DNA of 64,000 nucleotides from a bacterium (GTDB taxonomy: Bacteria > JAHJDO01), in contig JAUSPT010000032.1 of the NCBI GenBank assembly GCA_030652805.1, forward strand, positions 109,992 through 173,991. Direction: 5' to 3'. Positions 6,769 through 42,198 of this stretch are shown in pieces. Each line of letters begins with the position of its first letter. The first letter of the stretch is position 1. A program made the position numbers and the translations under genes. The notes beneath the pieces are model-generated. The model had not been told where the DNA came from, made no database searches, and saw only the letters and a program-made list of their open reading frames with translations.

Positions 6769-6793
6769 ATTCGCTCCTTAAGTTTTTATGAAA

Positions 6794-23033: not shown

Positions 23034-23046
23034 GTCAGTCTGTTGT

Positions 23047-23125
23047 CCCCTCAACCGCCTGCTTGAACTCACCCTGACCCTCTCTCCCCCTCAACCGCCT
23101 GCTTTAGCTGGCGGTTATTGTAGGG
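23047..23125. repeat. GC-rich direct repeat (18 nt x2, CCCCTCAACCGCCTGCTT) with an imperfect 12-bp hairpin
   Basis: Copies at 23047-23064 and 23087-23104. The second copy pairs with GGCGGTTATTGTAGGGG downstream. The region is markedly more GC-rich than the flanks. Confidence 0.4.
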
Positions 23126-23229
23126 GTATTGTAGGAGCACAATATCTTGTGCCCAATCTCGTTTGTCATTCTACGATTTGATTGGGAAATTCAGGTGGTT
23201 GAGGATTTGAGTGTGTTTTTTCTGTATTT

Positions 23230-24630
23230 TTATTTTGGTCGCAGTTTTTTTGTTTGAAAGTATTTGTTGATAGCATTACTTTTCGTCTCACATTTAATAA
23301 TAAAATCATATTCTCGAATTATGCCCATCAAACTCCAAACAAGAGCTATCTTCAAAGCAAGCAAATCTTCCCAGCAGTTTTTATTTTCCTCAAAATCTTT
23401 GCCGTGGTGAATAATTTTATTACGCCAATCTAAAAGTTTTCTATATTTGGCATAGTTTTCAATTCTTTTCTCAAGATCCATTGAGGTTAATAATGAAACG
23501 TTTTCTGCTATAATATGACTGTTGGTACCTGATTCTCCTGTAGAAAACAACGTCTCTAATGAGATGAAATAGTCGAGTGCAGAATCCGTGTTGTCTTCTT
23601 CTATAATTGCCCTAAGAAACCAGTCGAGAGAACGAAGTATTTTCTTTGGAAGCGTTTTGTTCTGAGATTCTATGCAAATTTGGTTAAATTTTCCAAGATG
23701 ACATTTATTCATGAGTTCTGTTACTGTTTCGTTAGTTATAATTATTTTTTCCCTTGAAAGCATTAATTTTTCAAATCGTGTATTAATTTGTATAATTGCC
23801 TTTTCTTTTCCTATTTCGTGTATAAAATATTTCTGGTATCCAGTTTGATTGTTTGTTACAAAAAGTCCTGTAGTAACAGTCTCTTTTTTTATTTCAAACC
23901 CCTTTTGCGCATTTCCAAGAAATGTGTCACAGACATGCAAAAAGGAGAAAAGTGTTTTAAATTCAGTCAAAGCATGTTCAAATACTGATGAAAGCTCATC
24001 GCTCAGGTGAAACCCATTAATATTTATCTCAAGAGCTGTATGCCCTTTCAATGCCTCTCGTTTTAGTGGGGATGAGATAGATGGAAATAACTTGGAAAAA
24101 TCCAATCCCCCTTCAATATTTTTAGGTAGTTTTTGTATGTAACCGTCATCAACATCGTTGAGAGATATGTTCCCAATTTTTAATTTTTTGGGACCATGTA
24201 AAATTACCAGATCAGTAAAAAGCAATACTTTATACTTGGCGCTATTTTTCTTGAGAGTATCTTTAATAAATTTTTCAGCAAAATAAACATCTTCTTGTTC
24301 TAGATACTTGTTTAACACGTCAGTAGGCGAGTGCTCTCGAGAAATTATTCGCTTTGTTAAGTTATGTATTAGTGAACGATAAAGGGCTGAAGCAGACGCA
24401 TTATTAATTTTTTCTTTATATTTAGGTAGTTCGTCAATGACAAAATTTTTAAACGCATAGGGAAGATAGAGAAATTGTTTGTTGTCGTATTTTAAATTTC
24501 CATCGAATACATCTAAACTTTCTCTCTTTTCTTCATCAAATGAATTTTCAAGTCCAATGCAATTTAAACCGATTCGTGTGATAGCAATTAATTTGTGTTC
24601 AAATTTATTCTTTCCTTTGAAAATTTTCAC
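23230..24630 (-). CDS. hypothetical protein, C-terminal HEPN-like motif (candidate abortive-infection/defence RNase)
   Basis: 466 aa; Rx4H motif (RNKIIHHG) in an alpha-helical C-terminal region; last gene of an operon with the R-M genes. Confidence 0.35.
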   Translation of the reverse strand: MKIFKGKNKFEHKLIAITRIGLNCIGLENSFDEEKRESLDVFDGNLKYDNKQFLYLPYAFKNFVIDELPKYKEKINNASASALYRSLIHNLTKRIISREHSPTDVLNKYLEQEDVYFAEKFIKDTLKKNSAKYKVLLFTDLVILHGPKKLKIGNISLNDVDDGYIQKLPKNIEGGLDFSKLFPSISSPLKREALKGHTALEININGFHLSDELSSVFEHALTEFKTLFSFLHVCDTFLGNAQKGFEIKKETVTTGLFVTNNQTGYQKYFIHEIGKEKAIIQINTRFEKLMLSREKIIITNETVTELMNKCHLGKFNQICIESQNKTLPKKILRSLDWFLRAIIEEDNTDSALDYFISLETLFSTGESGTNSHIIAENVSLLTSMDLEKRIENYAKYRKLLDWRNKIIHHGKDFEENKNCWEDLLALKIALVWSLMGIIREYDFIIKCETKSNAINKYFQTKKLRPK

Positions 24631-24699
24631 GCTTTTTCTCCATCTGATGTCTACTTTAAAGCAAATCGGGAAAATGTCAGGTGGAACGATTTAATAGAA

Positions 24700-25308
24700 T
24701 CATATTTTTATAAACTCTTTGAGAAATTTTGGTCTTGCATAAAAAGCTCTTGATGTAGATCCATGACCTGCGCCTTTTGTTCTTGGCTGAATATAAACAC
24801 CCATTGCACCTGTTAATGAATCAAATCCCCGAGAAGAATCAAGCAAAGCGTCTCTAACAAGATCATAGTCTGCTTTTACTGCTTCGTACAAGCTATCGTG
24901 CAAATCAAATTCAACGATAGAATGAATATAGCTTGGATCATTTACGGTATTCCCAACTATTCTTGCGACAACAACTGCTTTTTTAAGCTTTGCCAACAAG
25001 TGACTATCCTTAAACTTTTTCTGACAAACATTGACAGGATCAATCATCGTAATAGCCATAGTCTCTTTGAATGCAAGTTTTCCACTCTTTAGATATTTCA
25101 ATGGAATTGATTTTAACTCCCAAGAACCAAAATTAGGTGATTGGGCAGAATTTATAGGCAATTCTAAAAACCGCTCAAAGACATGACCAGCCCAACCTTT
25201 ATTTACTTTCATGTTTCGATATATAGTAATTCCATATTCATTAGCTAATTCGTGAAGTTCTTTACCTACAAGTTGCTGTAATTTCTCTACGGCTTCCGTT
25301 CTTTTCAT
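24700..25308 (-). CDS. MutH/Sau3AI-family GATC-specific endonuclease
   Basis: 202 aa. Similarity to MutH from recalled sequence: KGWAGHVFE (cf. KGWIGVLLE), NFGSWELKSIPL (cf. DFAALGVELKTIPV, the D-(E-x-K) catalytic core), C-terminal AFYARPKF (cf. GFYLKKNF). Confidence 0.6.
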   Translation of the reverse strand: MKRTEAVEKLQQLVGKELHELANEYGITIYRNMKVNKGWAGHVFERFLELPINSAQSPNFGSWELKSIPLKYLKSGKLAFKETMAITMIDPVNVCQKKFKDSHLLAKLKKAVVVARIVGNTVNDPSYIHSIVEFDLHDSLYEAVKADYDLVRDALLDSSRGFDSLTGAMGVYIQPRTKGAGHGSTSRAFYARPKFLKEFIKI

Positions 25309-25325
25309 TTTTAATTTCTCCTACA

Positions 25326-26180
25326 TTATGGCAATAAGCCGTATTCACTTTCTTTTTCTCGAACTTCATTATTTGAAGATAATGATAATTTATTGTTAAC
25401 AAGCTCGTCTTTCAACCTTGGAATAGCATACTTATCAAAATATTCCTGTTCCAAATCTATGCCAGCAAATTTGCGCTTATGTTTTAATGCTGCGACTCCA
25501 GTGGTTGCACTGCCACAAAAAGGGTCTAATATGATGTCTCCTTCATTACTTGTGGCTAATATCACTCTTTCTAATAAGGATTCTGGTTTTTGAGTTGGGT
25601 GCTTACCATATTTTTTTTCGCCATTTTTTGGTGTTCCAATCGCCCAAATACTTCTCATCTGCTTTTTGGATTTCTTAATAAAATCATTTGGGAAGCAGCC
25701 ATCTCTCATTACATCATAATTAAAAGTATGTTTTGCTTTTTTATCTTTTCTAGCCCATAACAAAGTTTCGTGACTTGCTGTAAACATTCTGCACGAAAGA
25801 TTAGGCGCAGCATTTGGTTTATACCAACAAATATCATTTACGATATGCCAACCTTGTTTTTGAAGGGCGAAACCACACGCATATATTGAATGATAAGTCC
25901 CTGAAATCCATAAAGAACCATTTGGTTTCAATACACGTTTACACGCTTTGATCCAGTTATAATGGAATTTGAAATCTTCTTCTATCCCTTGGCTTTTATC
26001 CCATTTCCCTTTGTTGACACTCACTCTTTTTCCAGCATGGCAGGTAAATCCGTCATTTGACAGGTTGTATGGCGGATCTGCAAAAATCAAATCAATGACT
26101 TTTTCTGGCAGTTGGTTGAGTGTTTTAACTACATCGCCAAGAAATAATCTGACGTTTATTTCTTTAAAATAGGCTTCCAT
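25326..26180 (-). CDS. beta-class N6-adenine DNA methyltransferase, DpnA/M.MboIB-like (GATC)
   Basis: 284 aa; motif IV DPPY near the N-terminus (IFADPPYNLSN); motif I at the C-terminus (ILDPFCGSATTG); NPAPNLSCRMFT, KHPTQKPESLLERVIL. Close resemblance to DpnA from memory. Confidence 0.8.
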   Translation of the reverse strand: MEAYFKEINVRLFLGDVVKTLNQLPEKVIDLIFADPPYNLSNDGFTCHAGKRVSVNKGKWDKSQGIEEDFKFHYNWIKACKRVLKPNGSLWISGTYHSIYACGFALQKQGWHIVNDICWYKPNAAPNLSCRMFTASHETLLWARKDKKAKHTFNYDVMRDGCFPNDFIKKSKKQMRSIWAIGTPKNGEKKYGKHPTQKPESLLERVILATSNEGDIILDPFCGSATTGVAALKHKRKFAGIDLEQEYFDKYAIPRLKDELVNNKLSLSSNNEVREKESEYGLLP

Positions 26181-26311
26181 TCTTTATTCCTAAATTTTTC
26201 TCTTCTCTCAATACCTTATTATACCCCACCATCCCAAAATCATAAAGGATAAATTAAGGATAAATGGAGAAGGAGGAAGGAAAAGGGCACAGATAGATTA
26301 TGAAATACTCT

Positions 26312-28639
26312 CTATTGCGGAGGTCTAAACTTCTGGATTCTGCTATTGATAAGTTGACGTCTATTTCCAGTATCAGTTACATAAACATATCCTTTTGAGT
26401 CAAAAGCTATGCCGGTTGGTGAATTAAATTGACCGTCACCTCCCCCACGGCTTCCCCACTTAGTTATATAATTGCCGCTTGCATCAAAGACCTGAATCAT
26501 ATTTGCAGCACTAACTACAAACATATAGCCATTATTTATAGCTATTTTTTGCGGCCGCTGCCCAAGTCTACCGAACTTTAATAGAAAATTCCCTGCACTG
26601 TCAAACTTCTGAACATTGCCTAATTTATAATCCAGAGCATACACATTTCCTGATTCATCTGCTGCTACATCCCATATATAGCTAAACTGCGAATTGCCCG
26701 CGCCGCGTTTGCCCCAGGCAGTCAAATAGTTCCCATCTTTATCAAATTTTTGTATTCTGTAATGCCGGGTGTCTGCCACATAAACATTCCCCTCTTTATC
26801 TACTGCCACACCACGGGGTTGGTCAAGTTGACCTTTGCCATGCCCCCGCTTCCCAATGCTTGCAACCAACGTCCCTTCCGGACTAAACTTATTAATGGAA
26901 TATGTGGACATATTACAAATATAAACATTGCCCTCTTTATCAATATCAATATCCATTGGTCTGCCAATATCCTTATTCTGCCAGGCTGCCAAAAGATCCC
27001 CTTTGGGACTGAGTTTAAGGACACTGCTGTTTTGCTTGCCTACTGTATCTATTACATAAATATTATCTGAATTATCAATTGTTATACCCTGAATAAAATT
27101 TATCTGCGTATTCTGGCCAATAACACTATCAAATCTAAACAGTCCTCCTATTGGAATCTTCTTGCCGACAGGCCAAATCACTTTGTCTTTATCTACCTTA
27201 GCTAATTTCTCTTGCTTTTTCTGCTCCTTCTCCTCTACTCGTTCTTTAGGCTTTGCTTTTGCCTGCATTTCTGCTCTAATAATTCCCTCCATGGCAAGAC
27301 GTTTATACTCTCTGGCTTCTATATTGTCAGGAGAAAGCTCCAGAACAGCTTCAAAATTTTCTATGGCTAATTTGTATTCACCGGAATTTTGCGCGCCTAA
27401 GTTGAAATGTATCTTTCCCCTGGTAAGACTTGACTTTATCTTCTCTTCATTTTTCTTTCTCATCTCCACCAATCGCGAATCTTCTGCTTCAAGGACCTTT
27501 TTCTTTTCCGGCTCTTCTTCTTTAGTAACGACAGGTTTCTGCGATTCTATGTCTTTAGCGATTGTTTCTTCTACTTTCTTTTCCGCTGTTTTTACTTTAT
27601 CAATAGTGGACTTTTCAACAACATGCGGAGAAGGAATGTCTTTTTTGCCGGTACTTATTGCTATGTAAATACCAATAATTATAACCACTAACAAAACTGC
27701 TGGAACAATAGCCTTGATTGGTATCTTTGTTTTCTTAACAATATCCTTTGCCATAACAGTGACTCCTGCATCTCCAGGAATAGCTACCGTTTTGCCATCA
27801 GCTGTAGCAGGCTGACGAAGAAGCCTCTTAAGGAGTTGTATAACATCATTCATATCCTGATAACGCTGATTCTTATCTTTTTTCATGCACTTTAATACCA
27901 TTTCTTCTGTTTCAAGAGATATCTTGGGATTTTTAGCGCGCGGGCTGGGAATATCCTCATGCAGGTGTTTATAAGCAGTTGCAAATGGATCCTTGCCTTT
28001 AAAAGGGAGTTCCCCGGCTAACATGCGGTATGAGAGAACTCCAAAAGCATACATATCAGATTTGGAATCAACACCCGTGCCCTTGACCTGCTCAGGGGAC
28101 ATGTATTCCGGAGTTCCTATACTCATCCCTGTTTTGGTTTTAACGCTTGAATCCTGCACTTTGGCAATACCAAAATCCATTACCTTTATACTGCCGTCCG
28201 CTGCAATCATGATATTGCCGGGCTTAACATCGCGGTGAACAACTCCATGCTTATGAGCGTAGGAAAGAGCCATTCCAACCTGCTGCAGGATTTCTAAAGT
28301 AAAATCCAATGGAAGCGCTTTCTTTCTCTTTAACAACTCATCCAGTGTCTCGCCTTCAATGTACTCCATAATAATAAAATAATTGCCTTCCAACTGTTCA
28401 GTATCATATACTTGTATAATATTACGGTGATTCAGCTTGGCCACAGATAAAGCCTCCTGCTTGAACCTTGTTACAAAATCCTTATCTGAGGCTAGATTTT
28501 GAGGCAACATCTTCATAGCTACAGGACGATTAAGAGAAATCTGAATTCCCTTATACACAATCCCCATACCGCCTTCCCCAATCTTTTCTACAATCTTATA
28601 CTTGCCTACAATCTTCCCAACTAAATCTTCTTTTGACAT
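26312..28639 (-). CDS. transmembrane Ser/Thr protein kinase with C-terminal NHL-repeat beta-propeller
   Basis: 775 aa; Hanks kinase motifs (HRDVKPGNIMI, DFGIA, TPEYMSPE); TM helix (VPAVLLVVIIIGIYIAI); TPR-like linker; repeated NHL motifs (GNVYVAD/GNVYALD). Confidence 0.85.
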   Translation of the reverse strand: MSKEDLVGKIVGKYKIVEKIGEGGMGIVYKGIQISLNRPVAMKMLPQNLASDKDFVTRFKQEALSVAKLNHRNIIQVYDTEQLEGNYFIIMEYIEGETLDELLKRKKALPLDFTLEILQQVGMALSYAHKHGVVHRDVKPGNIMIAADGSIKVMDFGIAKVQDSSVKTKTGMSIGTPEYMSPEQVKGTGVDSKSDMYAFGVLSYRMLAGELPFKGKDPFATAYKHLHEDIPSPRAKNPKISLETEEMVLKCMKKDKNQRYQDMNDVIQLLKRLLRQPATADGKTVAIPGDAGVTVMAKDIVKKTKIPIKAIVPAVLLVVIIIGIYIAISTGKKDIPSPHVVEKSTIDKVKTAEKKVEETIAKDIESQKPVVTKEEEPEKKKVLEAEDSRLVEMRKKNEEKIKSSLTRGKIHFNLGAQNSGEYKLAIENFEAVLELSPDNIEAREYKRLAMEGIIRAEMQAKAKPKERVEEKEQKKQEKLAKVDKDKVIWPVGKKIPIGGLFRFDSVIGQNTQINFIQGITIDNSDNIYVIDTVGKQNSSVLKLSPKGDLLAAWQNKDIGRPMDIDIDKEGNVYICNMSTYSINKFSPEGTLVASIGKRGHGKGQLDQPRGVAVDKEGNVYVADTRHYRIQKFDKDGNYLTAWGKRGAGNSQFSYIWDVAADESGNVYALDYKLGNVQKFDSAGNFLLKFGRLGQRPQKIAINNGYMFVVSAANMIQVFDASGNYITKWGSRGGGDGQFNSPTGIAFDSKGYVYVTDTGNRRQLINSRIQKFRPPQ

Positions 28640-28645
28640 AACTAA

Positions 28646-30619
28646 TCACCTATGTTTTTTAATTTGTTTTTTGGCTTTTATGTAATACTCATCGTCAGGA
28701 GACGCAATCTCCAGTACCTGCTTCCATTTTTCTACAGCTCTATTGATATTAATATCCTTAAGAGTGTATCCTTGAATGTATAATTCCCTGGCTTTCTCCT
28801 TTATATGAACCTGAAGCTCGTTAATGTTCTCCAGCGCTTCTTTATGATCAGGCTCTACTGTTAAGACAAACTGAAATTCCAAAAGAGCTTCCTTAAATTT
28901 TTCTTCCTGAACAAAATTCTTGCCTTTCTCCATGTGCTGATGAAGTGTTTCTATTAGATAAGGCCTCACTGTTTTAATATACTGGATAGCCTCTGCATGA
29001 TAGAAATTATCTCTGTCCTGTTCCAGAGAAAGCACCTGCCTCCACTCATCAACAGCTTTCATAAGCTGCTGACTGGCGGAAAAAGACATGCCTCTGTCAA
29101 ATGCCTGAGTAACATCCTTTACTTTATCCAGAAACTCCTGCGCCTCTGTATAATCTTTGTTTATATCTAAGACCATTTGCATTAACTCAATGGCTTGAGA
29201 AGCACTTCCTTTTTGATAGAGTTTCTTTGCCTCGTCAAAAAACTTTTCCGCTTTTTGCAGATCTCCAATCTGAGCTACCAATCTTTTGGCTTCATTGGCA
29301 TATTTAGATTGTGCAGATATTTTTTCTAGTTCTACTAAGGCATTCGCATAATTCCCTTTTTCAAAAAACTCCTTCCCTTTTTCAAAGTGTCTAAGAGACA
29401 GCAGCTTATGTTCAATAAGATTAAGCTTTTCCCTTATATGAGCGTATTCAGGTTTTAAATCGAGTGCATTATTTAACTCTGTCTGCGCTTTAAGGAGTTC
29501 CTCAGCAATGATATACTCATCTGCCAGTTTAAGAGCTTTTTGAATCTGGATTTCTTTCTTGGTCTTGTTAAAGTATTCTATTCCTCTGCTATTCTCAGGA
29601 TCCAGGCTCAATACTCTTTCAAACTGGCGCAGAGCATTTTCCCATTGAGCCTTTTGATAAAGTTCAAGACCTCGTGTAAGGTAGCGAGCAATCTCTTCAT
29701 CACCTCTTGATTTTTCCACATAGATCTGCGCATCAAGATTATCCGGATCCATCTGCAAAACTTTGTTAAAAACTTCAAGCGCTTTGATTTTTTGGTCTGC
29801 TTCGTGTAATTTTTTACCCTGTTTGATGAGATTTGCAACAGTATTATCTGAGACCTCAATTATGCCCCTCTTTTCCGGAGAACGAGTTGGAATAAGACTC
29901 ATGATCAATATAATAGCCAAGATGACGCCAAACCCAATTATTCCTAACCTTATGGGTGTTTTTTTCCATGCCTCCACAAGCAGCCCCGCCTCTGAACATG
30001 ACCCCTCTGTTACAAACTTCAGAACAAATTTCCCAACTTTAATTTCATCTCCTTTAGAGAGCGCTTTTTCCTTGATCTTATTATTATTAACAAAAGTCCC
30101 ATTGCTGCTTCCAAGGTCTGCTATTTTATATTGATTATTCTCCTTCTTAACTATGGCATGTTTTCGAGATACTGTCTCATTTTTAAGAACTATTTTATTT
30201 TCTTCAGCCCTGCCAATAGTCAATTCATCTTCGTCCAACTGATACTCCTCTTTAACTCTCGCCCCTTCCATTAACATCAGTCTATATTTTGGAGACGTAT
30301 AAGACCCGGGTGCCATTCTGGTTTTTTCTCCATCGTCACTTTTTAGTTCTAAACTATATTTCCCGATCTGAACAGTATCTCCTTCATTAATGGTCTCTTT
30401 TTCTATTTGTTCCCCATTTACAAAGACTCCATTGGCAGAGTTCAAATCCTGGATAGTCACATTCTCTGCCTTAATTTCTAATTGGGCATGTTGTCTTGAA
30501 ACACTCTTATCAGGAAGAACTATGCGGTTTCCTTCCTTTCTTCCAATGAGATATACTCCGTCTTCCAAAGATAACTCTTGAACTGATTTTTCGTTTTCTT
30601 TAATGATAAAAAATTTCAT
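28646..30619 (-). CDS. tandem-FHA-domain protein with TM helix and C-terminal TPR repeats
   Basis: 657 aa; two FHA cores (SRQHAQLE…NSANGVFVNG and SRKHAIVK…SSNGTFVNN); TM (IGFGVILAIILIMSLI); long TPR-like region. Confidence 0.8.
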   Translation of the reverse strand: MKFFIIKENEKSVQELSLEDGVYLIGRKEGNRIVLPDKSVSRQHAQLEIKAENVTIQDLNSANGVFVNGEQIEKETINEGDTVQIGKYSLELKSDDGEKTRMAPGSYTSPKYRLMLMEGARVKEEYQLDEDELTIGRAEENKIVLKNETVSRKHAIVKKENNQYKIADLGSSNGTFVNNNKIKEKALSKGDEIKVGKFVLKFVTEGSCSEAGLLVEAWKKTPIRLGIIGFGVILAIILIMSLIPTRSPEKRGIIEVSDNTVANLIKQGKKLHEADQKIKALEVFNKVLQMDPDNLDAQIYVEKSRGDEEIARYLTRGLELYQKAQWENALRQFERVLSLDPENSRGIEYFNKTKKEIQIQKALKLADEYIIAEELLKAQTELNNALDLKPEYAHIREKLNLIEHKLLSLRHFEKGKEFFEKGNYANALVELEKISAQSKYANEAKRLVAQIGDLQKAEKFFDEAKKLYQKGSASQAIELMQMVLDINKDYTEAQEFLDKVKDVTQAFDRGMSFSASQQLMKAVDEWRQVLSLEQDRDNFYHAEAIQYIKTVRPYLIETLHQHMEKGKNFVQEEKFKEALLEFQFVLTVEPDHKEALENINELQVHIKEKARELYIQGYTLKDININRAVEKWKQVLEIASPDDEYYIKAKKQIKKHR

Positions 30620-31674
30620 CTTTTTCCCTCTGCTGATCCTTTTGCTAAATGTTCCTCTACCTGCTTTAGACGTTTTAGCACTGTTTTATGCCTCTCATCC
30701 TTTCTATCAGATATCAAAGCCATACATATTTTGAGCTCTTTTTTAACCTGTTTCCAATCTTTCACACGAATATCCTTTTCAGCTTCAAATTTATGAATGC
30801 GATATTCGCTGTCCAGGTATTCCTTAGCTTCCTTTAGATTCAGGAGCGTCTGATGGAAATAATCCGGCTTTGGCTCCAGATGTCTCTGATAAGCCAGAGA
30901 CTTTTGATATGCTTCAATTGCCTTATAGGTATTCTCATAACTTATCATGCGTTCATTATAAAGAGCTTCCCCGTATTTAAAAGCCTCTTTTGCTTTATCT
31001 CTAATATTCCCAACGGGTTCACCGGTTCCTCTATCAATTTTTTCTATTATCTGTGGTTTTTTAGCACTTGTCTCCCCCTGGCTTTTTTCGGAAGACTTGT
31101 GCCCTGGCAGAAGCACATAAATTAGACCGGATATTACAGCTGCTATGAGTATAATCTTTGTGATGTTTTTTTTAGCATAAGTTGGATTCTTTATATTGGC
31201 GAGGATTTTTTCTTTAGACTTTTGAGCTTTTTGGGAGATACTGGGTTCTGCTAGTACCTTTCTGGAGACAGGGGTAGGCACAGGTTTAATAGCGAAATAC
31301 TCGGTTTTTCCATCTTGCTCAGATATTTCCTCCCCGACTATCGTTGCACTGGTCTCTCCTGATGAATTAACCTGCTCAGGGATTACTTCAAAAGCGAGAC
31401 CAACTCCTCCAACTTCAATTTTATCACGATCCTTCAACTCCTGACGCGATACTTTCCTGTCATTTACCTTTGTGCCATTCTTGCTCTCCAGGTCAACCAA
31501 TATCAGTTTTTCATCTTCTAAAACTATCTTGGCATGATGACGAGAGACCGTATCATTTCCTTCCAATACAATATTATTATCCTGCACTCTTCCAATAGTA
31601 CAGGGTTCATTATCAAACTCAAAACATTCCCCTGCTTTTAACCCGTTCCTTATAGAGACCTTATATCCTGGCAT
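30616..31674 (-). CDS. FHA-domain membrane protein
   Basis: 352 aa; FHA core (SRHHAKIV…SKNGTKVND); TM (ITKIILIAAVISGLIYVLL). Confidence 0.7.
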   Translation of the reverse strand: MPGYKVSIRNGLKAGECFEFDNEPCTIGRVQDNNIVLEGNDTVSRHHAKIVLEDEKLILVDLESKNGTKVNDRKVSRQELKDRDKIEVGGVGLAFEVIPEQVNSSGETSATIVGEEISEQDGKTEYFAIKPVPTPVSRKVLAEPSISQKAQKSKEKILANIKNPTYAKKNITKIILIAAVISGLIYVLLPGHKSSEKSQGETSAKKPQIIEKIDRGTGEPVGNIRDKAKEAFKYGEALYNERMISYENTYKAIEAYQKSLAYQRHLEPKPDYFHQTLLNLKEAKEYLDSEYRIHKFEAEKDIRVKDWKQVKKELKICMALISDRKDERHKTVLKRLKQVEEHLAKGSAEGKR

Positions 31675-32023
31675 TAACCATATCTCCTATACGAACCTGA
31701 GCGCTACTAATGGTGTCAGAGGGAAGTTCCAGCACATGCCGTACGCTTCTTCCTCCAAAAGCCAGCCGAAATGGTTTTAACTGAGATATAGTCTTTACAA
31801 CACAATAATTCTTATCCATAAAAACCACATCAATCGGGAACCTCATAAACCACGTATGTATGGCTTTGCAGTTTTTAATCAGTAATCCCTCTCCAGAATC
31901 AAGTTTAGCGCGTCCAATCAGCCCCTTAGTTCTCATTTGCCATGTATCTGCAACAACCACTCGTTGTCCTAAAATCTGATTATTACCAAAACTGATCACT
32001 ATAGTTGTCTCTCTAGAATCCAC
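31661..32023 (-). CDS. DUF192 (COG1430) family protein, common accessory of Tad loci
   Basis: 120 aa; pattern typical of DUF192 (…TWFMRFPIDVVFMD…). Confidence 0.5.
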   Translation of the reverse strand: MDSRETTIVISFGNNQILGQRVVVADTWQMRTKGLIGRAKLDSGEGLLIKNCKAIHTWFMRFPIDVVFMDKNYCVVKTISQLKPFRLAFGGRSVRHVLELPSDTISSAQVRIGDMVNARI

Positions 32024-32930
32024 CCTGCAAAAGCTTTATAATGATAGGGCCAAAAAGCATTACAAAAACTGCTGGAAAGATAAATCCTACAAGGGGCAGC
32101 AGCATTTTTACCGGCGCCTGCATTGCTGTTTTCTCTGCTATCTGCATCCTCTTGGTCCGCATCTGATCAGATAAGACCCTGAGTATAGGCCCAAGACTTG
32201 TTCCCAGTTGATCTGCCTGTATAAGCGATGTGCAAATAGCAGAAAGATCCGGCATATTAACTCTGTCTGCCATTGCTTTTAAAGCGTCGCGCCTTGTTGA
32301 CCCAAGCTTAATCTGCTGCTGCATGTGAAAAAGCTCCTCTACAAGTGGGCCTGCTTTCATCTTGTCAACCACTTTATTAATAGCTGCTGAGAAATCCAAT
32401 CCTGCCTCTACTGAAAGAGTTATCAAGTCCAGGCTGTAAGGAAGGCCTCTCCAGATCCCTTTATGCCTTTTCTTAATCTGATCCTTCAACCATTGATCAG
32501 GATAGAAATAAGCAAGCATGAACAGGATAATGTAATACCAAGCAATTTCAATAGACAGCATCTTAAGTATTAAAAGCCCGACGATTGGCGCAAGTATTAA
32601 TAGTAATTCTTTTATAGCCAAAAATTCTAGAGCGCTTATAGCTCCTGGATTTCCAGCTGAGGTTAGTTTTTGCGTGATATTATTCTGATATTCTTTAAGC
32701 CCAAACCGCTCGTGCAATTTCGCTAGTTTCCCGACCCATGGCATTAAGAAGCGATATAATGGATAGGTACGCATAAACTTTTCTCTTTTTTTCTCCAGCT
32801 GACCTAACATATCCAGATCTATCGCCTCCTCTTCCTTCTTCTCAAATAACGAGAGTATTCCTGCGCCTATAAAATAGAAAGCTGTAAAAATAAAAATATA
32901 AATTAGTGCTAAAATTATTATACTACCCAT
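32013..32930 (-). CDS. tadC: Flp pilus assembly inner-membrane protein TadC (T2SS-F domain)
   Basis: 305 aa polytopic membrane protein with a T2SS-F domain; follows tadB. Confidence 0.7.
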   Translation of the reverse strand: MGSIIILALIYIFIFTAFYFIGAGILSLFEKKEEEAIDLDMLGQLEKKREKFMRTYPLYRFLMPWVGKLAKLHERFGLKEYQNNITQKLTSAGNPGAISALEFLAIKELLLILAPIVGLLILKMLSIEIAWYYIILFMLAYFYPDQWLKDQIKKRHKGIWRGLPYSLDLITLSVEAGLDFSAAINKVVDKMKAGPLVEELFHMQQQIKLGSTRRDALKAMADRVNMPDLSAICTSLIQADQLGTSLGPILRVLSDQMRTKRMQIAEKTAMQAPVKMLLPLVGFIFPAVFVMLFGPIIIKLLQGGF

Positions 32931-32975
32931 TTTCCCCTTTGTGCCTTTGTGCCTTTGCCACTTTGTTTCTTTATC

Positions 32976-33830
32976 CTAAACATCAATATTAACAATTTTA
33001 TAAATCAGGAATCCACCTATTAGCTCCAGGAAAACAACTGTTGCAAGAAACGCCCAGCCAATAGCAGAAGTAAACATTATCTTCATTGTTGCCGGGTCCA
33101 GAAAATACATTATTATGCCAAGTCCTATAGGAAGCAAACCTACTACCAATCCCTGCATCTTGCCCTGAGATGTGAGCGCAGCAATCTTGCCATGCATTTT
33201 ATCTCTCTCCCTTATTGTATTTGCAATTCTATCAAATATCTCAGAAAGATTACCCCCTAATTGCCTGGAGATATTAATTGAGGTGACAACCAATTCCATC
33301 TGTTCACTGGGCATTCTCTTTCCCAATCTTTTCAACGCTTCTTCCATTGAAACCCCTAACTTAGTAGACCGGATAACCAGACTAAATTCCTGAGACAAAG
33401 GAGCCTCAGATTCCTTAATTAAAAAATCCAGTGCTTGTTGCAGACTTAAACCTGCCTTAAGAGAATTTGACACCGTTGTTAAAGCCCCTGTTAATTGAGT
33501 GTCAAACTTTTTCTTGCGATTCTTCTTTAACTGTCTGAGATAAATTCTTGGCAGAGAGAATCCAACGGCTCCAAATGCTAAGCATATTAGCAAACTATGA
33601 CTGAGCAAGTAACCAACCATTGCCATAACTAGAACACCAAGAATACTAAAATAAGCAATCTTTTCTGCTGGAATAAAAACAAACATCTCATCCAGCTCTT
33701 TTTCAGTTCCTGCAGCTACTTTCTTTTCATACTGTTTAATTCCCTTCTTAAAAGTCTGATAACCTGCCTGCGCCAGTATAAACACTGCTAAAAATGTAAG
33801 CCCAAGTATTAATAGCTCAATTATCTGCAT
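32976..33830 (-). CDS. tadB: Flp pilus assembly inner-membrane protein TadB (T2SS-F domain)
   Basis: 284 aa polytopic membrane protein with a T2SS-F domain; immediately downstream of the CpaF-type ATPase. Confidence 0.7.
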   Translation of the reverse strand: MQIIELLILGLTFLAVFILAQAGYQTFKKGIKQYEKKVAAGTEKELDEMFVFIPAEKIAYFSILGVLVMAMVGYLLSHSLLICLAFGAVGFSLPRIYLRQLKKNRKKKFDTQLTGALTTVSNSLKAGLSLQQALDFLIKESEAPLSQEFSLVIRSTKLGVSMEEALKRLGKRMPSEQMELVVTSINISRQLGGNLSEIFDRIANTIRERDKMHGKIAALTSQGKMQGLVVGLLPIGLGIIMYFLDPATMKIMFTSAIGWAFLATVVFLELIGGFLIYKIVNIDV

Positions 33831-35530
33831 TATTTTCCAGTCCTCTCTTCTTCAAATATCTTCATATCCAGGTGCATTCCCTTTGCTTCCAACTGAGGAA
33901 CAAAACTTGGAATATTGCCAGTAGCTACAAAAGTTCCCTGCACTTTACCATCCTGGCCAATTCCTGTTTGTTTGAAAACAAAAATATCCTGTAAAGTAAT
34001 GACTTCTCCCTCCATGCCTGTAACTTCAGTCACAGCAATAATCCTGCGGCTTCCGTCACTCAAACGAGACTCCTGAATTATTATGTTAATAGCTGAAGAT
34101 ACCTGTTCTCTGATAGCTCGGACAGGCAGATCCATACCTGACATTAAAACCATAGTTTCCAGACGCGAAAGAACATCACGAGGAGAATTGGCATGAGCAG
34201 TAGTAAGAGAGCCATCATGGCCAGTGTTCATAGCCTGAAGCATGTCCAGAGCCTCTCCACCCCTGCATTCTCCTACCACTATTCTATCAGGACGCATACG
34301 AAGAGCATTCTTTACCAGATCTCTAATAGCAATAGCTCCTTTGCCTTCAATATTTGGAGGCCGGGCTTCCAGAGAAACAACATGCTCCTGCGGTAGCTTA
34401 AGCTCTGCAGCATCCTCAATAGTTACTATTCTTTCGTCTTTAGGAATATAGGAAGACACTACATTAAGCAGTGTTGTCTTTCCTGATCCTGTTCCTCCTG
34501 ATATAATAATGTTCTTGCGTGAAAGCACACATATCTCAAGGAACTTCGCAGTATCTTTATTCAATGTTCCAAAACCTATCAAATCATCTATAGTAAAAGG
34601 AGTTTTGGAGAACTTGCGAATAGTTATACTTGGTCCTTTTAGAGCTAGAGGCGGAATGATCGCATTTACTCTGGATCCATCCTTTAATCTTGCATCTACC
34701 AGTGGCATGCTTTCATCTATTCTGCGGCCAATAGGCCCTACTATCCTCTCTATCACAGCCATAACCTGTTCATCGCTGGCAAAGGTTTTCTCGCAGAGCT
34801 GAAGCTTGCCTTTCTTTTCAATATAAATCTGATCCTTTCTGTTAACCATTATTTCTGTTACATCATCATCCTTTAACAGATCCTCCAGAGCTCCCAAACC
34901 CAGCGCTTCATCCAGCACGTCCTTTACCAAATCCTCTATATTCACCCGCTTAGGAATAGAGTCAGCCATTTCCTTAATTATGCCTCTGGTAGCTTTTTCA
35001 GTGCGGCTCCTGACTTCCTGCTCCTTTCCCTTTTCAAATGTTAAACTCTTTAAGTCAATACGCTGAATGAGCTGCTTATGAATTTTGATTCTTATATCAG
35101 AAAGCTGGCTAACCTTCCCTTTAGAAGCTGCTTTATCAGAAGGCATGGATGCAGGCGCTGGTACACGAACTTGTTTTACCTCTGTCTTTTCATCCTCATC
35201 TCTATCTTTTTTAGCTTCCTGCAACAAGCTGCCCTCAGAAATACCTGCATCTTCTAAAACCATGCTCAAGTGCCCTATTTTGACTTCTTCTCCCAGCGGC
35301 CAAAGCTCTTCCTTAGCTATTTTTTTCCCATTAAGATATGTGCCATTGCCACTGTCCAAATCTTTAATATATACCTGATTATCCTTCAGTCTGAGACTGG
35401 TATGATGTCTTGAAGCCCTTGGATCAGAAATCATCAAATCACAGTCTTTCTCCCTGCCAATGGTTACAGCTTCCCCCTCCAATTTAAAAATTCTTTCCTT
35501 ACCTGAAGCTTCTTTAATAACTATTCTCAT
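33830..35530 (-). CDS. CpaF/TadA secretion ATPase with N-terminal FHA domain (fusion)
   Basis: 566 aa; N-terminal FHA ([30 protein letters not shown]), then the CpaF core with Walker [13 protein letters not shown] and the VirB11-type ATPase region. Confidence 0.85.
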
Positions 35531-35533
35531 TCA

Positions 35534-36892
35534 CTATTCTCCCTGCAGTAATTGCATAGCCTTTCCTGTTTTTTGGGCAGGAATAAAGGTCGGAGTAGTA
35601 GGAGTCACCAGAACTATAATCTGTTTCTTCTCCTTTTCTGCCTGCTTCTTGGAAAATAACAGCCCCAGTACTGGAATTTGCCCTATACCAGGAGTGTACT
35701 TTTTGAAATCTGAAGCAAGCACGTCTGTAACACCTGAAAGAATCACTGACTGGCCCGGTTTAATAACTACATCAGACTCAGAACGATAAACCTTAAGTCC
35801 TGTTCTATCCTCGACTGTAGGATCAACCTGACTGACCTCCAGATTGATATGCATAGTTACCTCTCCAAAACTGTCCACCTCCGGCTTAACCTTAAGCAAC
35901 ATTCCATACTTCTTCCATTTAACATCTGCAGAACCACTTCCTGCTACTTTATATCCAATTTCGCCTCCATGTTCAAAAACAGCTTCTCCGCCGCTTAATG
36001 CAGACTGATGCAAAGACTTCCTTATAGTAGCATTCCCCTTAGAATGAGTAAAATTTAATGCCTTGGTCAGGTTATATCCTATATTCCAGCTGGGTCCGGC
36101 TCCCCCTGTACTTGCAAGACCTGCTCCGCCAGCTAATGTGCCTCCAAGCAGATTCATTCCCATATCCTTTCCTGCTACAGCGTTTATTTCTGCAAATTGG
36201 ACATCTACTTCTATCATAACCTTTTTTACTTTTAGAAGATTGATAACGTTTTCAGCAAATGCGCCTGCTATTTTTTCAACCTCCTTGGACTCTTCTTCTC
36301 CCACTACAAAACCTCTCAGAATAACCCTGTTTCCAATAATCTTAACATTCACATTTGGGATCCCGATATTCTTTTTAATTTCCTCTGCCAGAATTTCATT
36401 ATGAATCCCAGTGCGTATCTTCACCAGATTTATTACCTCTGGGTATGCTGCAGCAACTTTTTCTACTCTTTCTTTATCAGAAGCAGTCAAAACGGATCCA
36501 TCAATAACCACTTTACCCCCGACTACCTTGACTTTTATTCCTTCTACATCGCTTAATAACTGACGAACTTCTTCAGCAAACTGCCTTGGGTCTCTTGAAA
36601 TAACATAGATAGCATGGGTAACTTTTTCCTCTTTGCTGTCCCATATAATAAGATCTGTAGTTCCAACTTTTATGCCTGTAATAATTATCTGCTCACCACC
36701 AGCAACCACCTGAACATTAGCTACTTTATCATCTCCAACTGAAACACGCGCCAACTTCTTCACATCCACTACCTGCTGCTGCCCAACAGAAACAGTAATC
36801 GCTTTCTGTCCATAGACAACGCTTCCCATAAATAGTATGCAGATCGCTGCTGTCCATACTCCGACCAATCCTGTCTTTTGCTTAGTGTTCAT
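35534..36892 (-). CDS. cpaC: Flp pilus secretin CpaC/RcpA
   Basis: 452 aa; signal peptide; BON-like N-terminal repeats; secretin C-terminus (…IPVLGLLFSKKQ…IVLVTPT…). Confidence 0.75.
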   Translation of the reverse strand: MNTKQKTGLVGVWTAAICILFMGSVVYGQKAITVSVGQQQVVDVKKLARVSVGDDKVANVQVVAGGEQIIITGIKVGTTDLIIWDSKEEKVTHAIYVISRDPRQFAEEVRQLLSDVEGIKVKVVGGKVVIDGSVLTASDKERVEKVAAAYPEVINLVKIRTGIHNEILAEEIKKNIGIPNVNVKIIGNRVILRGFVVGEEESKEVEKIAGAFAENVINLLKVKKVMIEVDVQFAEINAVAGKDMGMNLLGGTLAGGAGLASTGGAGPSWNIGYNLTKALNFTHSKGNATIRKSLHQSALSGGEAVFEHGGEIGYKVAGSGSADVKWKKYGMLLKVKPEVDSFGEVTMHINLEVSQVDPTVEDRTGLKVYRSESDVVIKPGQSVILSGVTDVLASDFKKYTPGIGQIPVLGLLFSKKQAEKEKKQIIVLVTPTTPTFIPAQKTGKAMQLLQGE

Positions 36893-36919
36893 GTTTTTTC
36901 CTCCTTGTTTTTGTTTTAA

Positions 36920-37750
36920 TCAGAATTGTTCAATAGTTTTAACTCCGCCCTTAATTACTTCCACCTTGATTCTGTCCTGACGCTGGATAGTAAGTTTTTT
37001 AACCTGCTCCAGCTGCAAAATAGAACTCATTGTAATTTTCGGCATGTCTGGTATCACCTCTAAGTCTTCCGGATTGCGCAGAACAAGTGTTATTTTCCCT
37101 CTTGCTTGAGCAAAGATAATCATTTCCGCCTCCTGGAGCGTTAAAGAGAGAGTTACAGTATTATATCCTCTCCTTAGCATTGCTGCTGTAGAGTGCGTTT
37201 CCTCTACATCCACTCTTTTGCGTCCTACTTCCTGCCCTACAGCCAGAACAGTTACATTCTGAAGAAGAGTGAGAGTTGTTATCCCTGCTGCTTTTTCTCC
37301 TTCCACTGTAAAATTTGCAGCAAGATCTACATGATCATTCGGCTGGATATGTCCACCTACCCCTGTTACTTCATCTACAGAAATGGTTACTGCTCTCTCT
37401 TTCTGCCTTATGAGCGGAGATAATCCTTCCATCTTCTCCATCCCAAGACAGAGCCATGTTAACTGCTGACCTTTTTTTAGTAAAAACAACGTCTTCTGAC
37501 CTTGTATTATCTCAATATCATCAGGGTTTAATGCATTGGGATCTTTAAACTTACGAGGCACCTGCGAAATTTCTACCATTCCCTTAGAAATTTTCTCTTT
37601 TGCCTTTATATCCTTTGCTGCTACAAGAACGCTTACCAGCTCCTTTCCCTTAAAAATTGGTCTTGTAACACCTTGAATATAAAAATGCACCATGACTATC
37701 GCTAAAAGACCTAATACAACTCCCATTATTAATGAAGCTTTATTCTGCAT
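36920..37750 (-). CDS. cpaB: Flp pilus assembly protein CpaB/RcpC (SAF domain)
   Basis: 276 aa; N-terminal TM; SAF/RcpC-like periplasmic domain. Confidence 0.65.
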   Translation of the reverse strand: MQNKASLIMGVVLGLLAIVMVHFYIQGVTRPIFKGKELVSVLVAAKDIKAKEKISKGMVEISQVPRKFKDPNALNPDDIEIIQGQKTLFLLKKGQQLTWLCLGMEKMEGLSPLIRQKERAVTISVDEVTGVGGHIQPNDHVDLAANFTVEGEKAAGITTLTLLQNVTVLAVGQEVGRKRVDVEETHSTAAMLRRGYNTVTLSLTLQEAEMIIFAQARGKITLVLRNPEDLEVIPDMPKITMSSILQLEQVKKLTIQRQDRIKVEVIKGGVKTIEQF

Positions 37751-37768
37751 ATCTACCTCCCTTTTTTA

Positions 37769-38527
37769 TTAACTTATTTTAATTATTGTAGCATAGTTAT
37801 TCGTTTTGTCATTATTTTCATCTGGAAAAACAATCAAACATTTTCCATCCTTTTTCTGAGCGCTGAGTAAATCGCCACTATCATCCAGCTTCCACCCATT
37901 CATTTTTAATCGGCTCTGATAAAAGAACTTCTGTGTGGTTGAGGAAGCAAGGCTTTTATACATTAGCACTTTATAATTTACGCCTCCAACTCCAAGCTCA
38001 AAGCTGAGCGCCTCAGAATTTAGCGGGTAGATAGGTATATCCTTGATAAAATCCTCCTCAACATTTGATTCTCTCCATTCCTCAAAACTTAAACAAAAAA
38101 TATGGCTTCCCGAGAGGTTGGTATCCCTCATAGGCAAGACAGCTATGCCAAGACTTGGCGATTTCAATTTTTTAGCCATAATAAACTCACTGCCGCCTAT
38201 ATTCTTCCTGCAATGAAGACCAAAATTTCTCGTTTTCAGGTCATTTGAAAATTGTTTTATTAGTGTTTGAGCGGATAATGGGGAATGGTATATGCCAATT
38301 AAAGCGGGCTTAGAGTTAATCTTCACACGATAAGACTTGCCTGCCATATCTCTCATCATATCCGGAAGATTGAAACGTTTTTGGTTAATCTTATCCTGCA
38401 GTTCATAAATAAGCCCATAAACCTTATCTTGTCGACCGCCCTTTATTAAACCGTAACAACTCAAAGCAATAGTCAAAATAGCTATTAGAAGAACCTTCCC
38501 TGTGATTTTTGTTACTTGCCTTATCAT
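37769..38527 (-). CDS. hypothetical membrane-anchored protein within the Tad locus
   Basis: 252 aa; N-terminal TM (VLLIAILTIALSCYGL); no recognisable motif. Confidence 0.3.
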   Translation of the reverse strand: MIRQVTKITGKVLLIAILTIALSCYGLIKGGRQDKVYGLIYELQDKINQKRFNLPDMMRDMAGKSYRVKINSKPALIGIYHSPLSAQTLIKQFSNDLKTRNFGLHCRKNIGGSEFIMAKKLKSPSLGIAVLPMRDTNLSGSHIFCLSFEEWRESNVEEDFIKDIPIYPLNSEALSFELGVGGVNYKVLMYKSLASSTTQKFFYQSRLKMNGWKLDDSGDLLSAQKKDGKCLIVFPDENNDKTNNYATIIKIS

Positions 38528-39505: not shown

Positions 39506-39966
39506 TTGATTATTTCATCCTTGGAGAAGCAGAACCCTAGAAAACGGCAGCTCCCCTTCACTGTAGTTCCTCCACCAAATATGGCTGATAAATAAGGTCC
39601 TGCTGGCACAGTATATGTTACATCCATCTTCGCGCTTCCTTTCGCCATCACATACGAGAGAAAACTTGCAAGGTAATTAGTTCCCGGGATAAAACTCATA
39701 TCCGGGAGCCCTGCTTCTCTTAACAAATCAAAGCTGGTATTGACATTTCCATGACCAAAGAATACAGCACCGGCTCCTCCGCCATCTCTCGTTTCCTTTA
39801 GAGCTCCTTCTCTGGCTGCTATGTAAACCTTTGATTGAGCCACCATAACCTTTCCAAAGTGAACAACAATCATCATAATGAGTATAAAAATCGGCAGGAC
39901 AATTGCTGCTTCTACTGCTGCCTGACCACTGTTAGATCTAATTAGCTTCATTCTAGTCCTCCACAT
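39463..39966 (-). CDS. TadE-like pseudopilin
   Basis: SGQAAVEAAIVLPIFILIMMIV TadE-like N-terminus. Confidence 0.6.
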   Translation of the reverse strand: MWRTRMKLIRSNSGQAAVEAAIVLPIFILIMMIVVHFGKVMVAQSKVYIAAREGALKETRDGGGAGAVFFGHGNVNTSFDLLREAGLPDMSFIPGTNYLASFLSYVMAKGSAKMDVTYTVPAGPYLSAIFGGGTTVKGSCRFLGFCFSKDEIIKWIKQQLGEIASLL

Positions 39967-40956: not shown

Positions 40957-40964
40957 AAAGTTAA

Positions 40965-41165: not shown

Positions 41166-41169
41166 TCAT

Positions 41170-41349: not shown

Positions 41350-41355
41350 TAATTG

Positions 41356-42147: not shown

Positions 42148-42198
42148 ACTGGTTAATTCTAATACTTTTTCTATGCCTTTGTCAATTTTTTATACCAC

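Follow-up and report, generated by a model that had tools for sequence, protein, structure and literature searches.

Results and discussion

The segment between positions 23,222 and 26,307 of the 64,000-nucleotide stretch of bacterial DNA analysed here (the window) is likely to be strain-specific cargo of a variable slot, holding two independent defence modules: a restriction-modification (R-M) cassette probably directed at GATC and a single-protein HEPN system. As defence cargo the insert is unremarkable apart from two features, an Asn variant of the nuclease active site and an uncharacterised sensor-plus-HEPN architecture that resembles ApeA; it leaves current concepts unchanged and extends known categories.

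Gene layout and the variable slot

Three open reading frames proposed in an earlier note on this DNA are present at their coordinates, all on the minus strand: a methyltransferase (MTase) gene (26180..25326, 284 aa), a MutH/Sau3AI-family nuclease gene (25308..24700, 202 aa), and a gene with a GTG start that encodes a HEPN protein (24630..23230, 466 aa). The family calls for the three agree with the NCBI annotation. The MTase and nuclease genes are separated by 17 nt, and the nuclease and 466-aa genes by 69 nt. Scans for promoters and terminators returned sites no more common than expected by chance; a promoter-like site of this kind lies in the 69-nt gap, and no terminator-like site was found between the three genes.

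The whole three-gene islet (23222..26307, 3.09 kb) varies between closely related strains. A sister metagenome-assembled genome, L146 (94.4% nucleotide identity), runs collinear with the window as far as 26,308 and resumes this order at 23,221; between these parts, a 1.5-kb stretch with a PIN_12 gene replaces the entire 3.09-kb segment. This replacement by a PIN-domain gene identifies a variable defence slot, located just downstream of a Ser/Thr-kinase gene, whose right border is fuzzy and falls between 26,281 and 26,307. The three genes are thus cargo and not core genes, as expected from the inserted island that the note had proposed, given their absence from this related genome. Another sister genome carries an insertion with PDC-S02 and a Type III R-M system elsewhere in the same operon. 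The kinase-adjacent slot offers a clean natural case of defence-gene turnover among genomes that are 94-95% identical.

Two independent modules within the slot

The MTase and nuclease genes, together with 67 nt of upstream sequence, constitute a mobile cassette (24696..26247, minus strand) delimited by nucleotide identity to two other loci; its upstream part contains a TATAAT hexamer, read directly from the sequence (26223-26218, minus strand). Locus L143 is 93.2% identical to the window over exactly 24,696-26,247 (1.55 kb), with unrelated flanks, and L141 is 82% identical over 26189-24676. The 466-aa gene is left out of the 1.55-kb cassette shared with L143, and cassettes that are 92-96% identical stop 4 nt past the nuclease stop codon, with other genes beyond.

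Linkage between nuclease and methylase is the rule among related loci. An adenine methylase, DpnA-like or Dam-class, adjoins the nuclease in 71 of 80 loci; a homolog of the window's MTase lies directly upstream in 51 of the 80, and a D12/Dam-class MTase occupies this position in 19 (six of these 19 calls were tested, with Pfam E-values of 1e-57 to 1e-68). Nine of the 19 D12/Dam loci have a second N6_N4 MTase downstream, which corresponds to the M1-R-M2 layout of DpnII/MboI-like systems, and at one further locus (L087) the only MTase beside the nuclease is a downstream N6_N4 enzyme. The nuclease subfamily is patchily spread over more than 15 phyla, with identities of 61-96%, and the cassette is found elsewhere within TA and R-M islands. 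Comparison of these sequences supports the view that the methylase and nuclease behave genomically as a mobile Type II R-M system, and both the linkage in 71 of 80 loci and the movement of the cassette as a unit bear out the pairing of a methylase with a MutH-like, presumed restriction partner that had been proposed.

The same note had added that an abortive-infection HEPN RNase rides with the R-M pair, so that the three genes would form one co-functional system. The genes do share a strand, are closely spaced with no terminator-like site between them, and have been gained or lost together relative to L146. However, a homolog of the 466-aa protein is present in none of the 80 nuclease loci, near-identical cassettes end immediately past the nuclease gene and are followed by other genes, and no R-M genes adjoin the relatives of the 466-aa protein; the promoter-like site in the 69-nt gap points the same way, although its frequency equals chance. 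Coupling of the three genes is therefore highly improbable and largely refuted by the comparative data, and we regard the R-M cassette and the 466-aa gene, on these sequence comparisons, as two independent neighbouring modules rather than a three-gene system.

The methylase and its probable GATC specificity

The first gene of the cassette (25326..26180, minus strand) encodes a beta-class N6-adenine DNA methyltransferase of the DpnA/LlaDCHIB type, with probable GATC specificity, as indicated by profile matches to Pfam N6_N4_Mtase (6.4e-63) and PADLOC MTase_II (5.9e-99), by its identity to LlaDCHI, and by its motif order, with DPPY first and FxGSxTTG after. The motifs DLIFADPPY, GKHPTQKPE and ILDPFCGSATTG are present as previously read, but the middle motif is NAAPNLSCR and not NPAPNLSCR. 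The closest characterised relative is the second (DpnA-type) MTase of the lactococcal GATC system LlaDCHI from pSRQ700, which shares 51% identity and resembles the window's enzyme also in the ...APNLSCR... region between motifs IV and I, in agreement with the DpnA-class beta-group assignment made earlier. The resemblance to DpnII, LlaDCHI and MboI systems resides in the methylase, and the M1/M2 logic of DpnII is matched in nine of the 80 related loci, where the nuclease lies between a Dam-class and a second beta-type methylase. In contrast to those systems, the window holds a single methylase, and its restriction partner is a MutH-fold protein instead of a DpnII/MboI-family enzyme.

The methylase and nuclease pair probably targets GATC, the specificity best supported by the LlaDCHI identity and the analysis of methylase partners, and the sequence-based prediction of the note is retained in this respect. 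Recognition of GANTC, in the manner of CcrM or HinfI, or of some other site, by the methylase and hence by the whole system, has in its favour that the best PDB and NCBIfam matches of the methylase are CcrM (8e-60 and 4.6e-72, respectively). Nevertheless, the score against the CcrM equivalog (243 bits) is far under the NCBIfam cut-off (830 bits), CcrM-type relatives are only 43-45% identical, less than LlaDCHIB, and the C-terminal extension of CcrM is absent (284 aa versus a CcrM chain of 366). Moreover, Dam-class D12 methylases pair interchangeably with the same nuclease family, and the characterised MutH/Sau3AI relatives all act at GATC. GATC is depleted (observed/expected 0.63) and GANTC is not; GATC depletion is not specific, so it constitutes only weak evidence on specificity. 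Taking these points together, we consider a GANTC or other target very improbable.

A predicted MutH-fold nuclease with an Asn variant of the active site

The 202-aa protein (24700..25308, minus strand) is a single-domain MutH/Sau3AI-family endonuclease belonging to a subfamily with an N59...E64-x-K66 active site, presumed to be the restriction partner, according to Pfam, NCBIfam, PDB and conservation data. It matches Pfam MutH (PF02976) at 6.5e-12 with 45.7 bits, above the gathering score of 23, and its sequence matches in the PDB include Sau3AI (1.7e-9) and MutH (about 3e-5); a weak Pfam MvaI_BcnI match (9e-5, under the cut-off) covers the catalytic region. Against NCBIfam Sau3AI it scores 60.8 bits (1.1e-16; cut-off 300), covering profile positions 3-189 of 475, and against NCBIfam MutH 50.4 bits (1.5e-13; cut-off 243) and also 37.3 (cut-off 229.9). 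More than 5,000 homologs, counted as sequence clusters, were found, nearly all of 202 aa.

The MutH family assignment of the note holds, while the 'D...E-x-K' catalytic signature that it had described does not. The catalytic triad of MutH consists of D70, E77 and K79; Asn59 of the nuclease occupies the position of MutH Asp70 in every alignment, and E45, E64 and K66 align with MutH E56, E77 and K79. These four residues, Asn included, are 100% invariant across 70 nuclease sequences. A lack of the MutH catalytic residues, which the note had named as a ground for refuting its reading, is thus observed in part: an invariant Asn stands in place of the first Asp, and the remaining residues are kept. 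Asn at position 59 is fully invariant down to 39% identity, and Asp is found there in a 35%-identical relative. In the C-terminal part, an invariant R-A-F-Y190 may be compared with R-G-F-Y212 of MutH (the methyl sensor); the alignments are ambiguous in this region, and the similarity is a lead only.

Two closer identifications were rejected. An equivalog of Sau3AI is discarded by the single 202-aa domain, compared with two tandem MutH-like domains (approximately 475-510 aa), and by the score of 60.8 versus 300 bits; an equivalog of the mismatch-repair protein MutH is discarded by scores far under the NCBIfam cut-offs, by the distribution over more than 15 phyla, and by the mobile cassettes. 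The nuclease has in common with Sau3AI, LlaKR2I, DpnIII and MutH the fold family (Pfam MutH), the E-x-K element and the upstream Glu. Sau3AI-type enzymes, however, are about 490-510 aa long, include an additional MutH-like domain that acts as an effector and is not catalytic, and have C5-cytosine methylases as partners, whereas this nuclease comprises one domain and pairs with adenine methylases; MutH, in turn, is a MutL-activated nickase of gamma-proteobacteria that retains the first catalytic Asp. The likeness to BcnI and MvaI lies in a single MutH-like catalytic domain that acts alone, since these are monomeric restriction enzymes, which cleave both strands by two sequential nicks. They differ in keeping the canonical acidic residue and in their recognition sequences (CCSGG for BcnI and CCWGG for MvaI, unlike the GATC predicted here), and their overall sequence similarity to the nuclease is not significant.

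The invariance of N59 at the MutH D70 position raises an alternative in which the 202-aa protein would have a function other than restriction: catalytically inactive or able only to nick a strand, it would read GATC methylation and serve regulation or repair beside the methylase. The annotation of several homologs by JGI as 'DNA mismatch repair protein MutH' is consistent with this alternative, as is a conservation of 61-96% identity across phyla, unusually high for a restriction enzyme. Conversely, a dead enzyme would have no reason to retain E45, E64 and K66 without exception; the frequent methylase linkage, the patchiness driven by horizontal transfer, and the occurrence within TA and R-M islands agree with a nuclease that is toxic unless a methylase protects the host; genuine MutH is restricted to a group of gamma-proteobacteria, and the score against its equivalog is 50 versus 243 bits. 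A non-restriction role is, on balance, decidedly unlikely, and a restriction nuclease is the preferred reading. If the Asn variant were an active GATC enzyme, its family, with more than 5,000 sequence clusters from different phyla, would rank among the most widespread restriction families still to be characterised. It would also illustrate how the active site of PD-(D/E)XK nucleases can vary in nature, and it might furnish a compact new reagent for GATC. Should it instead be inactive or able only to nick, a very common methylase-linked gene would have been misread as a restriction enzyme.

A stand-alone 466-aa protein with a C-terminal HEPN domain

The second module (23230..24630, minus strand) is a stand-alone protein consisting of an N-terminal and middle region (residues 1 to about 322) and a C-terminal HEPN domain (residues about 326-462) with R403-x4-H408. 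The Rx4H HEPN-type motif that had been recognised from the sequence is present as RNKIIHHG at residues 403-410, the C-terminus adopts a confident helical HEPN fold in the model, and R403-N-K-I-I-H408 shows no variation among 29 full-length relatives or among 101 more distant ones with the C-terminal domain in common, all of which sustains the HEPN assignment. The protein matched no curated HEPN or defence model in Pfam, NCBIfam, PADLOC, PHROGs or PDB sequences, and only two weak HEPN_MAE_28990 matches were obtained among the 101 distant relatives. A Foldseek comparison of the whole model with the PDB gave nothing significant, the N-terminal 320 residues matched no solved structure, and ApeA structures were not among the PDB matches of the model.

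The architecture resembles that of ApeA in the order of its parts, since a single polypeptide begins with an N-terminal region that has no recognised homologs, continues with a middle part and ends in a HEPN domain, which is an RNase in ApeA and a predicted one here; one member of the family carries the JGI label 'Apea-like HEPN', and none of the 29 members matched Pfam HEPN_Apea or PADLOC ApeA at E<=1. ApeA becomes active once a ligand has bound in the pocket formed between its N-terminal and HEPN domains, and it then cuts phage RNA or the anticodon loops of tRNAs. The 466-aa protein differs from ApeA in being shorter (in Ec2ApeA the HEPN part by itself covers residues 335-583), in having a compact HEPN domain that no large insertions interrupt, and in its beta-rich middle region, as ApeA is mostly helical.

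An alternative is that this protein is not an anti-phage effector, but resembles a toxin or processes RNA, in the service of housekeeping or of its own selfish maintenance. Several observations argue against it: the gene is strain-variable cargo at a position where one sister genome has a PIN-domain gene, the other sister genome bears its PDC-S02 and Type III R-M insertion in the same operon, and the family is rare (about 27 full-length cluster representatives) and patchy in its contexts. Its members have unrelated gene neighbours, including, for one of them, an adjacent Septu-like ATPase+HNH pair, and the locus has no adjacent antitoxin-like (MNT) gene. We therefore consider a non-defence role unlikely and favour a defence effector.

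Proposed mode of action and wider meaning

In the proposed model, the methylase would produce N6-methyladenine, most probably in GATC, and the MutH/Sau3AI-family nuclease would attack incoming DNA at GATC sites that lack methylation. As BcnI and MvaI do, it may cut the two strands in turn, re-orienting after the first nick. The active site of the nuclease would be a natural variant in which E45, N59, E64 and K66 stand for MutH E56, D70, E77 and K79, with Asn59 as a putative neutral metal ligand. In the 466-aa protein, the N-terminal and middle region may serve as a sensor or regulator, and the HEPN domain, with R403 and H408, as an RNase that infection would activate, much as in ApeA.

A bolder joint reading, which we regard as possible though doubtful, is that a member of a very large, pan-bacterial, GATC-methylase-coupled subfamily of Asn-variant MutH-fold proteins lies here beside the first representative of a new family of single-protein defence systems. 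The nuclease would then be either a PD-(D/E)XK enzyme whose metal site is non-canonical or something other than a conventional restriction enzyme, such as a nickase or reader that responds to the methylation state, and the 466-aa protein a structurally novel sensor joined to a HEPN RNase, ApeA-like in its working but with an unrelated sensor. Such a family would bring a new sensor architecture to single-protein HEPN defence systems.

Repeats and hairpins around the slot

A GC-rich direct repeat of two copies of about 23 nt with a strong hairpin (23047..23125; copies at 23047-23069 and 23087-23109), which the note had placed at the left boundary of the islet, is real (in 100 shuffles the number of matches was never equalled, and folding gives a z-score of -5.3) but is not the island border, as it lies about 100-175 nt beyond the true segment border (approximately 23,222). 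It sits instead at a second synteny breakpoint near 23,040, where homology to two other loci (L095 and L093) ends, beside the promoter of a MerR gene. The window has two copies and L146 one; no others were found within the window or in 143 loci. An island end or att-like site was rejected on these grounds: a single site in the window, none in the 143 loci, and a position outside the slot border.

Between this repeat and the islet, the slot is flanked by a conserved non-coding spacer (23131..23221), 86% identical to L146 12227-12317, in which the hairpin GGGCACAAGATATTGTGC can be read at about 23138-23157. In L146 the same hairpin also occurs just after the kinase gene, followed by a T-run, and at the corresponding side of the slot in the window (approximately 26281-26299) only its 3' half remains.

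Gene content and layout of the islet

Three minus-strand ORFs, confirmed at the positions predicted in the earlier note, encode a 284-aa methylase (26180..25326), a 202-aa nuclease (25308..24700) and a 466-aa HEPN-domain protein (24630..23230), the last with a GTG start and GGAG ahead of it. The genes are separated by 17 and 69 nt, respectively, and their GC content (0.32-0.35) is slightly lower than that of the flanks (0.37-0.42); neither tRNA nor Rfam elements were found in the window. The family calls made from the sequence alone (a methylase and a MutH-family nuclease) were correct, and the motifs quoted with them are present overall, but the methylase reads NAAPNLSCR instead of NPAPNLSCR, and the nuclease lacks D...E-x-K. 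The islet is of an ordinary defence kind, and its annotation at the family level is already publicly available; the modest interest of the finding resides in an invariant Asn active-site variant within a very large, methylase-linked subfamily of predicted MutH fold, and in the uncharacterised, putative sensor-plus-HEPN architecture of the 466-aa protein.

The methylase and its probable specificity

Profile matches assign the 284-aa protein to the beta-class N6/N4 DNA methylases (Pfam N6_N4_Mtase, 6.4e-63; PADLOC Type II MTase, 5.9e-99), with DPPY close to the N-terminal end and FxGSxTTG close to the C-terminal end. CcrM was the top solved-structure match (8e-60); the NCBIfam CcrM equivalog cut-off was not reached (243 vs 830 bits), and the CcrM C-terminal extension is absent. 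Among annotated plasmids, the best match came from Lactococcus lactis pSRQ700, a plasmid bearing LlaDCHI, a GATC system related to DpnII; the second methylase encoded there is 51% identical over 254 residues, whereas CcrM-type alphaproteobacterial proteins reached 43-45%. On the basis of homology, GATC is thus the best-supported specificity. In the window, GATC shows depletion (O/E 0.63), unlike GANTC (183 observed, 199 expected), which constitutes weak evidence, since GTAC, CTAG and GGCC are equally depleted (O/E 0.53, 0.59 and 0.61, respectively). CCGG is enriched (O/E 1.31), and these tetranucleotide biases hint that other restriction systems exert, or formerly exerted, pressure.

A MutH-like nuclease subfamily with an invariant Asn

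The 202-aa protein passes the Pfam MutH threshold (6.5e-12) and matches the Sau3AI N-terminal catalytic domain (NCBIfam 1.1e-16; PDB 4pxg 1.7e-9) and MutH (about 3e-5), falling far below the equivalog cut-offs of both. On these scores it belongs to the MutH/Sau3AI superfamily, one of whose defining catalytic residues it lacks, but not to MutH or Sau3AI at equivalog level. In the MutH catalytic 'DEK' motif, whose studied residues are Asp70, Glu77 and Lys79, the intact motif previously claimed for this protein does not hold: E45, E64 and K66 align with MutH E56, E77 and K79, and Asn59 stands opposite Asp70 in every alignment. All 70 sequences compared, down to 61% identity, have Asn59 (100%), within an invariant P-N-F-G-S-W-E-L-K block, which rules out a sequencing accident. 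Relatives on viral contigs still keep it at 52, 50 and 39% identity; one at 35% identity has Asp at this position, like MutH and Sau3AI. The 202-aa proteins form a coherent and very large N...E-x-K subfamily, comprising 5,261 clusters (E<=1e-3), almost without exception of exactly 202 aa. To our knowledge, there is no PD-(D/E)XK precedent for Asn at this position; Asn is a Mg2+ ligand in other nuclease classes, e.g., the Serratia nuclease.

Homologs at 61-85% identity occur in Gamma-, Alpha-, Beta- and Zetaproteobacteria, Desulfobacterota, Planctomycetota, Clostridia, Spirochaetia, Atribacterota, Campylobacterota, Acidobacteriota, Verrucomicrobiota, Omnitrophota and the cultured Moraxella atlantae, a distribution that indicates horizontal spread. 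On a viral contig from IMG/VR (L140), a MutH-like gene is present as two fragments (4473-4622 and 6708-6788) about 2 kb apart, a pattern resembling disruption by an insertion.

The methylase and nuclease form a mobile cassette

The methylase and nuclease genes are a discrete mobile unit. In a metagenomic contig (L143), similarity to the window, at 93.2% nucleotide identity, is confined to 26,247-24,696, with both flanks unrelated; the shared span begins 67 nt ahead of the methylase ATG, takes in a TATAAT hexamer (26223-26218) and ends 4 nt beyond the nuclease stop. A second contig (L141) displays 82% identity over 26,189-24,676, its copy adjoining another R-M pair, and MAGs of Thiomargarita and Thermodesulfobacteriota have the pair in the midst of toxin-antitoxin genes.

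Across 80 genome loci carrying the nuclease, a homolog of the 284-aa methylase is found directly upstream in 51, and a D12/Dam-class methylase takes this place in 19 (six of which were tested for class, with Pfam values of 1e-57 to 1e-68). Nine of these 19 carry a second N6_N4 methylase directly downstream as well, the same two-methylase layout as DpnII/MboI-type GATC systems, and one further locus (L087) has an N6_N4 methylase downstream only. In total, an adenine methylase adjoins the nuclease in 71/80 loci; the rest consist for the most part of short contigs or truncated matches. Free interchange of DpnA-type and Dam-type partners would be expected of a nuclease that reads GATC and is blocked by m6A.

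The three genes had been read in the earlier note as one functional unit; this is contradicted by the end of the cassette in L143, immediately past the nuclease, and by the absence of any relative of the 466-aa gene from all 80 nuclease loci, as well as from L143, L141 and the Thiomargarita and Thermodesulfobacteriota loci.

The 466-aa HEPN-domain protein

The 466-aa gene behaves as stand-alone, its relatives being found in settings that have nothing in common: after an unannotated 579-aa gene, beside queA, after two unknown genes or, in Fusobacterium, directly after an AAA_15/21 ATPase and HNH pair resembling Septu. In the latter contigs (L004-L007), the genes upstream of P0003 encode an AAA_15/AAA_21 ATPase and an HNH_5 nuclease, directly followed by a 411-aa HEPN-domain relative; this layout resembles PtuA/PtuB, to which the HEPN protein may add a third component.

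No match to the protein was obtained in Pfam, NCBIfam, PADLOC, PHROGs or PDB sequences. Word-indexed search returned three relatives, and exhaustive profile search about 27 full-length cluster representatives (E<1e-30), together with about 2,100 proteins sharing only the C-terminal ~150 residues. Failure of the protein to retrieve itself in the first homolog search is attributable to an apparent mis-clustering with 42-55-aa peptides (representative of 55 aa; members of 42-52 aa, one named antitoxin YefM). Assignment to ApeA was rejected, as 0/29 family members reach the Pfam or PADLOC ApeA models at E<=1.

In 29 full-length relatives, the C-terminal domain invariants are W337, E359, L361, R389, R403, H408 and G410, of which only E359, R403 and H408 are invariant in 101 distant relatives. 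The middle region holds a further invariant patch, G206-x-H208-x3-E212-x-S214, which is situated where a beta-strand ends and is distant in sequence from the HEPN motif; it could form a pocket for a ligand or another catalytic site.

Proposed mechanism

We infer a two-module mechanism. The methylase and nuclease would constitute a Type II R-M cassette, in which the methylase marks host GATC adenines and a nuclease of MutH fold, working as a monomer, cleaves GATC sites that lack this mark, probably in two successive nicks, with Asn59 acting as a neutral metal ligand in place of Asp. The characterised relatives MutH, Sau3AI, LlaKR2I and DpnIII all act at GATC, and sequential nicking has been shown for the single-domain MutH-like enzymes BcnI and MvaI. 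The 466-aa protein, in turn, would be a single-protein sensor-plus-HEPN RNase, its closest working analogue being ApeA, in which a ligand between the N-terminal and HEPN domains leads to cleavage of tRNA anticodon loops or phage RNA.

A variable slot and its borders

Three sister MAG contigs share 94-95% nucleotide identity with the window. One of them, L146 (GCA_043824255.1), is collinear over 36,915-26,308, a stretch that ends 4 nt beyond the kinase stop, and over 23,221-23,131; between these parts it holds 1.5 kb with a PIN_12 gene in place of the 3.09 kb of the window, which bears out the proposed insertion of the islet. The 386-aa PIN_12-domain protein (L146 10956-12116) matched no PADLOC model; its gene may be a further, as yet uncharacterised, gene for defence or for a toxin.

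In L146, a near-palindromic hairpin, GGGCACAA-TATC-TTGTGCCC, with a T-run behind it, is found after the kinase gene, and the hairpin flanks the slot on both sides (~10764-10784 and ~12290-12312). The window retains an intact copy in the conserved spacer (about 23138-23157) and, on the kinase side, the 3' half alone (about 26281-26299). This element could be a terminator doubling as a recombination site for cargo exchange. The GC-rich repeats at 23047-23125, formerly taken as the islet boundary, are real and fold strongly, but they are located beyond the slot, where a second breakpoint adjoins the MerR-gene promoter.

The more distant L095 (80-87% identity) is without the entire 19-kb block 23,040-42,190, joining ~42,191 to ~23,005 of the window through about 960 nt of unrelated sequence. 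The block, retained in the 94-95% identical sister MAGs, contains the islet, a Ser/Thr kinase with NHL repeats, FHA and FHA-TPR proteins, DUF192, two T2SSF genes, a T2SSE-FHA ATPase, a secretin and small pilin-like genes. In a further sister contig, L144 (GCA_018812485.1), a PDC-S02 (YhcG-like PD-DExK) gene and a Type III R-M pair (579-aa Mod, 943-aa Res) at 1253-6960 separate the DUF192 gene of this operon from the FHA gene, an insertion that is absent from the corresponding window junction (31,661-31,674); this junction is a second defence landing site in the operon.
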